A DNA stretch of 64,000 bases from Oscillospiraceae bacterium (GTDB lineage Bacteria; Bacillota; Clostridia; Oscillospirales; Acutalibacteraceae). The position numbers and the translations under genes were made by a program. The notes below the pieces were generated by a model. It was given only the letters and a program-made list of their open reading frames with translations, made no database searches and was not told the DNA's origin. This document shows positions 29,725 to 45,904 of the stretch, piece by piece; position 1 is the stretch's first letter, and every line of letters begins with the position of its first letter. Location: contig SVON01000003.1 of assembly GCA_015066365.1 (NCBI GenBank), forward strand, positions 61,416 through 125,415, given 5' to 3'.

Positions 29725-32571
29725 ATGCGTTTTTATGAAGATTTGACCCGCTTATCGGCCGGCCGTATGGCGCCGAGAAGCTATTACATCCCTGAGGGGA
29801 TGGCCCGGTACTGTTTGCTGAACGGCGATTGGCAGTTCCATTACTTTGAGAATGGGGACGCCGCCACCGAGCCGGAGAGCTGGGATACCATCCCGGTGCC
29901 CTCCTGCTGGCAGATGCACGGCTACGACAATCCCAACTACACCAACGTGTGCTATCCCTATCCCTTCGACCCGCCCTATATCCCCGACATCAACCCCTGC
30001 GGTTGGTATCGCCGGACCTTCACGGTGGCGGAGCCGGAGATGCAGCACTATCTGGTGCTGGAGGGCGTTTCTTCTTGCGCGCGTGTGTGTGTTAATGGCA
30101 CAGAGGTTGGCTACACCCAGGGCAGCCGCTTGCAGGCCGAGTTTGACCTGACGCCTTACATAACGGCAGGGGAAAACACCCTGCTGATCCAGGTCTGGAA
30201 ATGGTGTGCCGGCAGTTATCTGGAGGACCAGGACCAGTTCCGGTGCAACGGCATTTTCCGGGACGTGTACCTGCTGGTCCGCCCCAAGGGCCATCTCCAC
30301 GACCTGTCCATCACCGCGGTGGACAACGCCGCCTTCCGCATCACGGCGGATGTGCCGATGACCGTTAAGGTCACCGACGGCCTCCTCCCAATCGGTGAGG
30401 GCACGGGCACCGACGTGACGGTGCCGGTGGCGAATCCCATTCTGTGGAATGCGGAAAAACCCCATCTTTACGACATCGAAATTCAGTGCGCCGGCGAAGT
30501 GATTCGCCGCAAGGCGGGTCTGCGGAGCATCGCCATATCGGATAAACGGCAGGTGCTCATCAACGGCCAACCGGTCAAGTTCCGGGGTGTCAACCATCAC
30601 GACACTTCTCCTACCGGCGGTTGGACCATGACCGACGCAGAGCTGTACCGCGACTTGCAACTCATCAAGTCGCTGAATATGAACACGGTCCGCACCTCCC
30701 ACTATCCCCCCAGTCCCAAGTTCCTTGACTGGTGCGACGAGTTGGGTCTGTATGTGGTGTTGGAGACCGACCTGGAGGCCCACGGCTCCATCCACCGTTT
30801 CCCCTGGCAGGAGGGCGGCTTCTTCAATCACCAAGAAGGCTCGCTGACCAACCTGCCCGAGTGGGAAGGCGCTTTCGTAGAACGGATGGTCCGTGCGGTG
30901 GAGCGGGATAAGAATCACCCCTCCATTATTTTCTGGTCGCTGGGCAACGAGAGCGACTACGGCGATAATCACCGGGCGATGATCCGCTGGCTCAAGAGCC
31001 GGGACGACGACCGACTGACCCACTACGAGGGGGCTTCCGCCGGCAACGTCTTCGAGCTGGACGTCTACTCCCGGATGTACCCCTCGCTGGAAGAGATCGA
31101 GCGTCTCGACCGGGAGGGCACCGAGGGAGAACCGGTGTTCCTGTGTGAATACTCCCACTCGATGGGCAACGGTCCCGGCGACGTGTGGCAGTATTGGGAG
31201 CGTATCCTGGCCCACGATTCCCTGGTGGGCGGCTGTATTTGGGAGTGGACCGATCACACGGTGATCGTGGACGGTGTCCCGAAATACGGCGGCGATTTCC
31301 CCGGCGAACTGACCCATTCCGGCAACTTCTGTTGCGACGGTATGACCTTCCACGACCGGTCGTTTAAGGCCGGCACGATGGAGATCGCGGCGACCTATTC
31401 CCCCTTCCGCTTCACTTACGAAGACGGCAAGATCGCGGTGAAAAACTGGTACGCCTTCACCAACCTGAATGAAAAACGCTTGCGGTACACGCTGGCGGTG
31501 GACGGCAAGATCCTTGAGCAGGAGACGGTGGTGCTGGATTGCGCCCCGTACGAGACGGCGGTGATCACGCCTAAGGCGGCGTTCCCGGCCTCTTGTGAGC
31601 TGGGCTGCACCGTGACGGTGGCGCTGTACGAGCCGGAGGGCGACGAGCCCTTTGCTCAGTTGCAGCAAGAGGTGGACGTGCCGGTGGGCTCTTTGGTGCC
31701 GAATAACCCGAACCGTTTTCCGGCACAGCTCACCGAGGACGAATTCCACGTCTACGCCAAGGGTGACCGCTTCACCTTCGCCTTCTCCAAACAGCACGGT
31801 ATGTTCGATAGCTTGGTCATCGACGGCCGTGAGCGGTTGGCAGGACCGATTAGCCTGACCGCCTACCGCGCGATTATTGATAACGAGATGTTCTGCTATA
31901 AGAACTGGAAGTACGACACTCAGTTCAACGCAGAGAATATGGACCGAGCCTTCACCAAGGTCTACGACGTGAAGGTGACCGGTCACCGCATCGAGGCCAA
32001 ATGCAGTCTGGCGGGTGTATCCCGCGTGCCGATGATCCGCTACACGCTGACCATTGACGTGTATAACGATGGCAGTATGGATTGGACGGTGAACGCCGAG
32101 GTCCGTGACTGGGCCGCTTGGATCCCACGGTTCGGCTTTGAGATTCCTCTGGCGGAGCAGGACCTGGCCTTCCGGTATTTCGGACGGGGTCCTCTGGAGA
32201 ATTACAGCGACCTGCGGCATCACGCTCAGCTCGACTGGTTCGACAGCACCGCCTCTTCGGAGTACGTACCCTACATCCTGCCTCAGGAGCACGGCAACCA
32301 TACCGGTGTCCGGTCTCTGACAATAGACGGCCTCACCTTTGAGGCGAAAAACAAAGCCTTTGAGGCGAACGTATCCCAGTATTCCGTGCTTCAGTTGGAC
32401 CGTGCCACTCACCAAGACGAGATCGGCCCCTCCACCGGAACGCACCTGCGTGTGGATTACCGCAATTCCGGTGTGGGCTCTCAGTCCTGCGGACCGGAGT
32501 TAGCCCCGGAACATCGCATCACCGAGAAGCAGATCTCGTTCGGCTTCCGCGTTGCTCTGCAACCGAAATGA
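29725..32571 (+). CDS. GH2 beta-galactosidase (LacZ-type, with C-terminal small-chain-like domain)
   Basis: [37 protein letters not shown], and C-terminal PLENYSD...[11 protein letters not shown]. Confidence 0.85.
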
Positions 32572-32659
32572 TGCCAGTTCCGTAATCTCTATTTTATTTA
32601 TTTCTTTATTATAAGACTTAATCGCAAGCAAAATTTTCAAGGAAAGTGAGTTGTAGACC

Positions 32660-44878: not shown

Positions 44879-44917
44879 TGCCCACCACACAACTGTAACT
44901 GAAAAGGAGTTTTTACT

Positions 44918-45904
44918 ATGGCTAAGATTGTAAACGGTGTTTCTCTGCCCAACATCCCCTGGCAGGATCGTCCCGCCGGCTGCGACAACGTGGTGTGGCG
45001 TTATTCCGAGAACCCCATCATTAAGCGCAACCCCGCTAAGAATTGTCAGCGCGTGTTTAACAGCGCCGTCGTGCCGTGGGGCGACGAGTTTATCGGTGTG
45101 TTCCGCGCCGATACTACCATCACCACCCCCAACCTGCACGTGGGTCATTCCAAGGATGGTATCAACTGGGAGATCGAGCCCGAGGCCATCGACTGGCGTG
45201 ATGAGAACGGCGAGCCCTTCGTTTCTACCTACTATTACGATCCCCGCGTCACCTGGATCGAGGATGCTTACTATGTGATGTGGTGCACCGAGCAGGGCGG
45301 CCCCGTTCTGGGTCTGGGCAAGACCAACGATTTCAAGAACTTCACCCGTCTGCCCAACGTCACCCTGCCCTTCAACCGTAACGGCGTGCCCTTCCCCCGC
45401 AAGGTGAACGGCAAGTACCTGATGTTTAACCGTCCCTCCGACGACGGCCACACCCCCTTCGGTGACATTTGGCTGTCTGAGTCTCCCGACCTGGTTTACT
45501 GGGGCAACCACAAGCACGTGATGGCCCGTGGCACCAACGTGTGGTGGGAGTCCACCAAGATCGGTGCCGGTAATGTGCCGATCGAGACCGATGAGGGCTG
45601 GCTGGTGTTCTACCATGGTGTTATCAATACCTGTAATGGTTTTGTGTACTCCTTTGGTGCGATGCTGTGCGACCTGGACGATCCCTCCAAGGTGATCTAT
45701 CGCGGCCGCGAGTACCTGATCACCCCCGAAGAGGATTATGAGACCGTGGGCTTTGTTCCCAACGTTTGCTTCCCCTGCGCTTGCCTGGCGGATGCCGACA
45801 CCGGTCGTATCGCCATCTACTACGGTGCGGCTGACACCTATGTGGCCCTGGCCTTCACCACCGTGGACGAGGTTCTGGACTACCTGAAGAACAACCATCA
45901 GTAA
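44918..45904 (+). CDS. GH130 family beta-mannoside phosphorylase/hydrolase-like protein
   Basis: 328 aa. NPIIKRNP...VFNSAVVPWGDEFIGVFRAD...DPRVTWIED.YYVMW...NGVPFPRKVNGKYLMFNRP...GAG..PIETDEGWLVFYHGV is typical of five-bladed-propeller GH130. Confidence 0.8.
   Translation: MAKIVNGVSLPNIPWQDRPAGCDNVVWRYSENPIIKRNPAKNCQRVFNSAVVPWGDEFIGVFRADTTITTPNLHVGHSKDGINWEIEPEAIDWRDENGEPFVSTYYYDPRVTWIEDAYYVMWCTEQGGPVLGLGKTNDFKNFTRLPNVTLPFNRNGVPFPRKVNGKYLMFNRPSDDGHTPFGDIWLSESPDLVYWGNHKHVMARGTNVWWESTKIGAGNVPIETDEGWLVFYHGVINTCNGFVYSFGAMLCDLDDPSKVIYRGREYLITPEEDYETVGFVPNVCFPCACLADADTGRIAIYYGAADTYVALAFTTVDEVLDYLKNNHQ

Follow-up and report, generated by a model that had tools for sequence, protein, structure and literature searches.

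In the 64,000-nucleotide stretch of Oscillospiraceae bacterium DNA analysed here (the window; contig SVON01000003.1, positions 61,416 to 125,415), seven consecutive genes at 32660-44878 form a cassette found in several orders of the Bacillota, whose invariant core order is a giant solute-binding protein (SBP), permeases A and B, an NHL/tetratricopeptide-repeat (TPR)/Yip1 membrane protein, a DUF5696 protein, and permeases C and D. The cassette is real, is strongly conserved and is undescribed in the literature that we searched. With a confidence a little better than even, we propose that it is self-contained and acts at the cell surface to capture a complex carbohydrate, to trim it, and to bring it into the cell through two importers. 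Its parts are the following.

32660-35665, + strand: giant SBP, 1001 amino acids (aa), with Pfam SBP_bac_8 at aa 593-902
35665-36591, + strand: permease A, MalF/UgpA-like, 308 aa, matching NCBIfam GlcT/UgpA/MalF, with the EAA motif EAGAIDG
36606-37505, + strand: permease B, MalG/UgpE-like, 299 aa, matching NCBIfam UgpE (4e-26) and, weakly and below the cutoff, Pfam BPD_transp_1
37508-40549, + strand: NHL beta-propeller/TPR/Yip1 membrane protein, 1013 aa, with Pfam matches to Yip1 (46.9 bits), NHL (36.1 bits) and, weakly, TPR
40580-42979, + strand: DUF5696 lipoprotein, 799 aa, Pfam DUF5696 at 418 bits, with an LTGC lipobox
43001-43894, + strand: permease C, MalF/UgpA-like, 297 aa, matching Pfam BPD_transp_1 (40 bits) and NCBIfam UgpA/MalF
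43919-44878, + strand: permease D, MalG/UgpE-like, 319 aa, matching Pfam BPD_transp_1 (49.5 bits) and NCBIfam UgpE/MalG

These genes lie within a run of nine open reading frames (ORFs) at 29725-45904, the outermost of which encode glycoside hydrolase (GH) family proteins of GH2 and GH130. Domain calls on the nine ORFs with Pfam and NCBIfam bore out the identities given in a first-pass annotation of this DNA, namely GH2, SBP, permeases A-D, NHL/TPR/Yip1, DUF5696 lipoprotein and GH130. That annotation also mentioned a recurrence in Firmicutes of the gene set of a big SBP, a Yip1 protein, a DUF5696 protein and permeases, and this proved correct. Using the window proteins as phmmer and jackhmmer queries we mapped 53 distinct loci, 40 of which have flanks long enough to be judged; all seven core genes are present in 40 of these 40, the second MalG-like gene carrying the label pB instead of pD in two of them. 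The loci, which we refer to by our own L numbers, came from scanning a single genome for each GTDB species, which returned 40 loci, and from distant members examined individually. As a diverse alignment of 34 DUF5696 proteins was too divergent, the scan was seeded with a close DUF5696 set, and its retrieval was thus biased toward relatives; the distant members were checked one by one because of this bias. Most of the retrieved loci come from a single order, as metagenome-assembled genomes (MAGs) of the Oscillospirales/Acutalibacteraceae. The core genes in the related loci are closely packed, with median intergenic gaps of -1 to 22 nt.

Beyond these relatives, the same gene order surrounds DUF5696 homologues of 43%, 28% and 26% identity, and the seven-gene set is kept at 23-26% identity in L007, L048, L049 and L052 (24-25% in the last three). 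Well outside this genome too, the accessory proteins (NHL/Yip1 and DUF5696) keep company with the giant SBP and the two permease pairs, and our searches brought to light no published characterisation that assigns them to an already described system. Carriers span classes of the Bacillota (Clostridia and Bacilli) and several orders, and include two cultured organisms in which the cassette lies on large replicons, Butyrivibrio fibrisolvens D1 (pNP243, WAA20_RS20510-20545) and Paenibacillus cellulosilyticus KACC 14175 (HUB94_RS00490-00525). The order is permuted in L050, where it runs second SBP, NHL/Yip1 protein, DUF5696 protein, permeases C and D, a GH10 enzyme, giant SBP, and permeases A and B; this suggests that the cassette divides into two sub-modules. 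A truncated Halanaerobiales contig carries the latter part of the usual order, as Yip1, DUF5696, permeases C and D, followed by an SBP, GH9 and GH31. In a reverse search with the N-terminal 580 aa of the giant SBP, the homologues found sit in the same cassette, and among the loci examined the giant SBP architecture is met only in that context. A DUF5696 profile matched 3,996 clusters (at 50% identity) with E <= 1e-30 among 1.84 billion representative proteins, and in every examined locus that extends far enough the DUF5696 gene is located in the cassette.

The giant SBP has a signal peptide of the signal peptidase I type (VYA/EP), followed by two beta-sandwiches like carbohydrate-binding modules (CBMs) of families CBM6 and CBM35 (aa ~65-222 and ~245-383), a bundle of long helices (aa 384-501) and an SBP domain of the CUT1 type (aa ~555-1001). 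The SBP_bac_8 match scores 65 bits against a cutoff of 27, and the PDB sequence matches are sugar SBPs. An AlphaFold2 (AF2) model of aa 1-580 has a pLDDT of 85, and its sandwiches match CBM35/CBM6 modules in Foldseek (TMt up to 0.77). Residues W293, W302, Y312, R330 and W354 of the second sandwich are invariant or nearly so across clades. The signal peptide lacks a lipobox, and no other anchor is recognisable in the protein; a lipobox-like motif occurs in 9 of 107 homologues, leaving 98 without. Since a monoderm cell must hold a binding protein at its surface, this raises the question of what tethers the giant SBP.

We propose that the tether is the NHL/TPR/Yip1 protein, a membrane scaffold that would keep hold of the giant SBP and perhaps of the glycan too, a role suggested by its topology, by the gene order and by the missing anchor. 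Its Yip1 match (PF04893; 46.9 bits against a Pfam cutoff of 28.6) covers aa 820-989, corresponding to profile positions 3-172 of 173, and the Yip1 motifs HPxxxF, NW and EGxG are conserved in 23 homologues. A signal peptide is followed by ~735 aa predicted to be extracellular and by six transmembrane helices predicted from a hydropathy scan at aa 776-994. The cytoplasmic parts are short loops, and no output domain (kinase, HTH, GGDEF or similar) is recognisable in the protein. L007, L052 and B. fibrisolvens encode the NHL/TPR and Yip1 parts separately. Homologues are usually ~700 aa long; the subclade of the window has an insertion of ~280 aa within the propeller (aa ~125-405; window positions 37880-38720), which holds a CBM-like jelly roll resembling domains of the neighbouring CBM_4_9 proteins and which most homologues lack.

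The 799-aa lipoprotein, first described only as a large one, has a recognisable fold, a glycosidase fold like that of GH129, GH101 and GH36. Its AF2 model (pLDDT 88.9, pTM 0.89) comprises an N-terminal beta-sandwich, a central (beta/alpha)8 barrel and a C-terminal beta-sandwich, and in Foldseek against the PDB it matches ZgGH129 (5opq, E 7.7e-30) and NagBb (5wzn, E 8.5e-26), with TMt of 0.66-0.72 for GH129, followed by GH101, a Flavonifractor galactosaminidase, GH36 and GH31. GH129, GH101, GH36 and GH31 are retaining enzymes acting on alpha-linked sugars. A profile of 34 DUF5696 proteins finds GH129 chains among PDB sequences at E 1.9e-9 for the whole sequence, the match being broken into three weak segments that leave out the barrel's catalytic portion, and none of the Pfam glycoside hydrolase models reaches its cutoff on the protein (GH114 scores 16.8 bits against 27). 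Of 34 diverse homologues all have D603, 30 have D647 and 29 have an acidic residue at position 520; D603, N639, N685, N778 and others are invariant or nearly so across clades. D603 and D647, 44 residues apart in the barrel, fall by interpolation between aligned blocks where the GH129 catalytic aspartate (D486, from D486N in 8rzk) and its partner are expected, and are thus a candidate catalytic pair; as direct alignment to GH129 failed, catalytic competence is something that we infer. The protein is extracytoplasmic throughout the family: 93 of 106 homologues have a lipobox; the Butyrivibrio protein starts with a plain signal peptide, and that of Paenibacillus has a membrane helix at its N-terminus.

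All four permease translations contain EAA-type loop motifs, and NCBIfam assigns A and C to UgpA/MalF, B and D to UgpE/MalG. Only C and D exceed the cutoff of Pfam BPD_transp_1; permease A has no Pfam match at E <= 0.01 and is thus divergent. The first-pass annotation had credited the locus with one SBP and with no regulator. Both statements need amending, as the wider window contains the following genes.

53334-54896, + strand: second SBP, 520 aa and of ordinary size, SBP_bac_8 at 64.7 bits, a lipoprotein (LVSCGS) with a linker rich in Ser, Thr, Pro and Asp
61489-62406, - strand: AraC-family regulator with a cupin sensor domain and HTH_18 (Pfam)

The second SBP gene lies 8.4 kb downstream. 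It is the sole match in the window for the SBPs of L029, L046, L006, L053 and L055 (E 2e-21 to 1e-10; 9e-52 for L055), and the matching SBP gene directly follows permease D in the first four of these loci and heads a block before the cassette in L055. This similarity and synteny make the 520-aa SBP the likely partner of permeases C and D. The AraC gene stands beside the second-SBP block; it is the nearest sugar-type regulator, 16.6 kb downstream on the opposite strand, and its homologue heads an AraC-SBP-p579-CBM block that adjoins the cassette in L055 (the p579 family is described below). It is a candidate regulator of the island to which the cassette belongs. In the working definition of a Gram-positive polysaccharide-utilisation locus (PUL), a glycan-degrading enzyme, a sugar transporter and a regulator are co-located. 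Here the enzyme and transporter genes adjoin one another, the AraC gene lies at the distance just given, and upstream a LytTR protein gene stands behind a terminator of its own. The reported lack of an ATPase gene stands, in that no ABC_tran ORF was found in the operon or among the window ORFs scanned with Pfam, but it is not an oddity: Firmicutes CUT1 loci usually have no ATPase gene and depend on shared MsmX/MsmK-type ATPases. P. cellulosilyticus has a gene for a MalK/UgpC-type ATPase (ABC_tran, OB_MalK, TOBE_2) immediately in front of that for the giant SBP.

The substrate of the cassette had been guessed, from the enzymes at the two ends of the operon, to be beta-mannosyl or beta-galactosyl.

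29725-32571, + strand: GH2, LacZ-type beta-galactosidase-like protein, 948 aa (Pfam Glyco_hydro_2_N/C, Bgal_small_N)
44918-45904, + strand: GH130_2, beta-1,4-mannoside phosphorylase-like protein, cytoplasmic, 328 aa (Pfam GH130, 279 bits)

The GH2 protein scores 703 bits with NCBIfam Bga2A, under the cutoff of 999, and is without a signal peptide, hence cytoplasmic. GH130 matches TM1225 (9e-157), the Ruminococcus albus beta-1,4-mannooligosaccharide phosphorylase (5ayd, 1.5e-128) and UhgbMP (4udg, 6e-122) among PDB sequences. Both genes are restricted to the clade with at least 40% DUF5696 identity, which also keeps the downstream His_Phos_1, p579-family and CBM_4_9 protein genes and often Lgt-like genes. 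As GH2 and GH130 lie outside the conserved core, they do not define the substrate of the cassette; the guess is reasonable for this clade, given its GH130_2, but not for the cassette at large. Other clades have GH16, GH10, GH9 with GH31, GH30 with GH35, GH38 or GH43 in their flanks, or no glycoside hydrolase, and the regulators near the cassette elsewhere are of the LacI, AraC or two-component (histidine kinase/response regulator) types.

From these parts we infer a scheme whose functional steps, above all those of the scaffold and of the enzyme, are put forward conditionally. In sub-module X (the giant SBP with permeases A and B), the secreted, non-lipidated giant SBP would grip the glycan through its two CBM6/35-like modules, and its C-terminal CUT1 domain would hand an oligosaccharide to the MalF/MalG-like pair A/B. 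In sub-module Y (the NHL/TPR/Yip1 and DUF5696 proteins with permeases C and D, working with an ordinary lipoprotein SBP, here that of 53334-54896), the DUF5696 protein, tethered outside the membrane, would cut the captured glycan or remove its branches, giving products that would enter via C/D. The Yip1-anchored propeller/TPR scaffold would hold the giant SBP, which has no anchor of its own, and perhaps the substrate as well, beside the transporters. A shared MsmX/MalK-type ATPase, encoded elsewhere, would drive both importers. The flanking cytoplasmic GH2 and GH130_2 and the secreted CBM_4_9 proteins suggest that the substrate of this copy is probably a glycan containing beta-mannosides or galactosides. 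We also put forward, tentatively and as less likely than not, a bolder form of this proposal: that the cassette encodes an unrecognised monoderm surface complex in which the Yip1 propeller/TPR protein is a new type of accessory subunit of type I ATP-binding cassette (ABC) importers, docking an anchor-less, CBM-bearing SBP and a GH129-like enzyme onto two transporters, and that this is a Gram-positive counterpart of Sus-type systems devoted to one conserved ligand.

In favour of a capture, trimming and import cassette we count its conservation, the two sub-modules, the importer-type parts, the DUF5696 fold, the CBM-like modules, the lack of an anchor on the giant SBP, the nutritional flanks and, for this copy, the closeness of GH130 to characterised beta-1,4-mannoside phosphorylases. 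Several observations weigh against it. The DUF5696 protein is only ~12% identical to GH129, a sub-profile of its catalytic barrel half matches no glycosidase among PDB sequences, direct residue alignment failed, and the protein may bind without catalysing anything. That the Yip1 protein would act as a scaffold is drawn only from topology and from the missing anchor of its presumed client, and the pairing of the 520-aa SBP with C/D from similarity and from synteny elsewhere, not from adjacency here. We found no experiment or transcript data for any member of the cassette. Residues of the DUF5696 protein and of the second CBM-like domain are invariant across clades with wholly different flanking enzymes, and some cassettes have no glycoside hydrolase nearby (L048, with NifU and PGA_cap; Paenibacillus, with LLM oxidoreductases): one common ligand fits these facts better than diverse dietary glycans.

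The same facts support the leading rival, which we consider unlikely, that the cassette does not forage for varied dietary polysaccharides but handles either a single widespread microbial glycan or a glycan of the cell's own surface, be it from glycosylated surface proteins, the capsule or a wall polysaccharide, and that a GH129/GH101-like activity would release this glycan and its products would be recycled. The identity of the invariant ligand is the main uncertainty here. Some of the cassettes lacking a nearby glycoside hydrolase lie beside PGA_cap/CapA genes (L007, L048) or housekeeping genes, the closest solved relatives of the DUF5696 protein include enzymes that cut sugars from Ser/Thr (GH101 and the GH129 NagBb), genes for very large surface proteins (Flg_new, GLUG, cadherin-like, dockerin) are frequent neighbours, and Lgt paralogues lie downstream in the window. 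However, most loci are flanked by enzymes for plant or host glycans and by sugar-responsive regulators (AraC, LacI, histidine kinase/response regulator), the cytoplasmic GH2 and GH130_2 of this clade point to imported beta-mannosides, and there are no linked glycosyltransferase or export genes.

It is also conceivable that two ordinary, independent CUT1 importers lie by chance beside an enzyme gene and a membrane protein gene, their order reflecting the common descent of close genomes. Sugar loci of Gram-positive bacteria commonly contain each of these types of part (SBP, MalFG-like permeases, extracellular glycosidase), and most of our loci are from Oscillospirales/Acutalibacteraceae MAGs retrieved with a pattern built on close relatives. 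We nevertheless regard this as quite improbable: the set persists to 23-26% identity in both Clostridia and Bacilli, including the Butyrivibrio and Paenibacillus replicons, and sub-module Y recurs on the Halanaerobiales contig; it stays while its surroundings all change; it survives both the L050 permutation, with the two sub-modules still adjacent, and the fission of the NHL/Yip1 gene; and the giant SBP architecture is confined to it among the loci examined. A mainly sensory role, in which the giant SBP and the NHL/TPR/Yip1 protein would detect an extracellular glycan and the permeases would be plain importers, has some appeal, as an extracellular propeller/TPR region joined to a multi-pass membrane domain resembles sensor architectures and regulators are often near. 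We think it highly improbable, since the Yip1 protein shows no output domain and has only short loops in the cytoplasm, and the regulators beside the cassette are of varied, self-sufficient types. The gene content gives no hint of a defence system or of a mobile element.

Around the cassette, the window contains the following further features.

29642-29670, + strand: promoter-like site TTGCAA-17-TAAAAT, 9/12 consensus matches, 55 nt 5' of the GH2 start
45915-45946, + strand: intrinsic terminator with a 15-bp stem (including flanking A/U pairs), a tetraloop and a U8 tail
46062-46790, + strand: His_Phos_1 protein (Pfam), kept behind GH130 wherever a locus of the clade reaches that far
21471-25997, + strand: first p579/CBM_4_9 pair (641 aa and 864 aa; Pfam and similarity), 5' of the operon
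46997-51003, + strand: second pair, secreted, a p579-family protein (46997-48736) and a CBM_4_9 protein (48757-51003), from Pfam and synteny
55004-61354, + strand: third p579/CBM_4_9 pair, 684 aa and 1426 aa, the latter with six CBM_4_9 stretches (Pfam and synteny)

The operon proved to be laid out as first described, with nine ORFs on the + strand whose starts and stops are exactly those noted before, separated by gaps of -1 to 88 nt and closed by one strong terminator. The hairpin can be read directly from the sequence after GH130, and has a folding energy of -32.5 kcal/mol (z -8.06). By consensus match the TTGCAA-17-TAAAAT site is a candidate operon promoter; no riboswitch or leader RNA was found by Rfam within 28000-47500. 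The block of the second SBP, the 684-aa and 1426-aa proteins and AraC matches one that immediately precedes the cassette in L055; the functional island is therefore taken to span ~21471 to 62406 of the window, and it contains three paralogous p579/CBM_4_9 pairs. The second SBP, the third pair and AraC form one block, and the pair at 46997-51003 is retained downstream of the cassette in most clade loci that extend far enough. A p579/CBM_4_9 pair also adjoins the cassette in L055 and L056. Proteins of the p579 family are secreted and 580-690 aa long, and gave no Pfam or PDB sequence match either as single sequences or as a 15-sequence profile; from invariant E..NE and E.G motifs seen by eye, they are possibly clan GH-A-like barrels.

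Other neighbours are noted here for their own sake. The His_Phos_1 protein has a paralogue at 28613-29308 (- strand) that is 47% identical to it, so that the two flank the operon in opposite orientations. Two tandem Lgt-like paralogues (prolipoprotein diacylglyceryl transferase family; 51091-51927 and 51989-52843) are 60% identical and lie downstream of a locus rich in lipoproteins; an Lgt-like gene occupies the same position in L008, L009, L014 and L016. At 27683-28558 a stand-alone LytTR DNA-binding protein (155 aa) and a DUF3021 membrane protein (134 aa) are encoded in succession; the pair ends at a strong bidirectional terminator (28568-28601) and has no evident tie to the sugar locus. In L054 (15916-25139), on the P. 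cellulosilyticus plasmid NZ_CP054609.1, four LLM-class flavin-dependent oxidoreductases, an NADPH-dependent oxidoreductase and two more SBPs come after the cassette in place of glycoside hydrolases, unexpected surroundings for a sugar importer. Calcineurin-like phosphoesterase/PGA_cap (CapA-like) genes recur near the cassette in several clades, as in the window at 62578-63984 (- strand), in L005 at 16078-16896, and in the flanks of L007 and L048. In R. albus 7 grown on cellulose, an ABC operon (Rumal_3184-3187) and a CapA gene (Rumal_3179) are induced at least 4-fold (PMC4300822). This set resembles L048, where the cassette is followed by two PGA_cap genes, and is a possible further instance of it. 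Many gut metagenomes contain a Ruminococcaceae/Oscillospiraceae MAG that matches the window.

The cassette shares much with the CUT1 importers of Firmicutes (MalEFGK2; MsmX/MsmK-dependent) and with Gram-positive PULs: SBP_bac_1/8 domains, paired MalF/UgpA-like and MalG/UgpE-like permeases that have EAA loops, a locus devoid of an ATPase gene, and neighbouring glycoside hydrolases and AraC, LacI or two-component regulators. It differs from them in always joining two permease pairs, in having an SBP of ~1000 aa with two CBM6/35-like modules, a helical bundle and no lipid anchor, and in the invariant Yip1-anchored NHL/TPR and GH129-like proteins between the permease pairs. The DUF5696 protein has the three-domain fold of GH129 (ZgGH129, a 3,6-anhydro-D-galactosidase; Bifidobacterium NagBb, an alpha-N-acetylgalactosaminidase; Foldseek E 8e-30 to 1e-24), but is set apart from it by its low identity and by the catalytic barrel segment, which does not align by sequence. 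NagBb is intracellular, whereas the DUF5696 protein of the window is a surface lipoprotein. The likeness to the Bacteroidota Sus system (SusC/D, SusE/F, SusG) is one of logic only, in that a conserved block of surface enzyme, glycan-binding modules and transporter is surrounded by variable enzymes; there is no homology, and the cassette encodes a monoderm ABC importer whereas Sus works through a TonB-dependent outer-membrane transporter. Bacillus subtilis YknWXYZ offers another parallel, as YknW is a multi-pass Yip1-family protein that is encoded and acts with an ABC transporter. However, YknYZ is an exporter of the MacB type that has a membrane-fusion protein, YknW lacks a propeller/TPR ectodomain, and the system has no sugar context.

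In our literature search we found no paper that mentions DUF5696 or PF18952 or that gives the cultured homologues by RefSeq accession, and nothing relevant on Yip1 with SBP or GH, on CBM35 with SBP, or on YIP1 with ABC permeases. What is new in the cassette is that two importers are invariably coupled, together with its CBM-fused SBP without an anchor, its Yip1-anchored propeller and its GH129-like protein. With ~4,000 DUF5696 clusters, and the cassette present in every examined locus of sufficient length, a very common piece of the uptake equipment of rumen and gut Firmicutes has gone unstudied. The cultured carriers, B. fibrisolvens D1 and P. cellulosilyticus KACC 14175, make its function directly testable. 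If the roles proposed here are true, DUF5696 would become a glycoside hydrolase family in its own right, a new one, the giant SBP would stand as a clear example of a transporter binding protein fused to CBMs, and bacterial Yip1 proteins would gain a function; the cassette would then bear on how Gram-positive fibre degraders couple glycan capture to import without an outer membrane.

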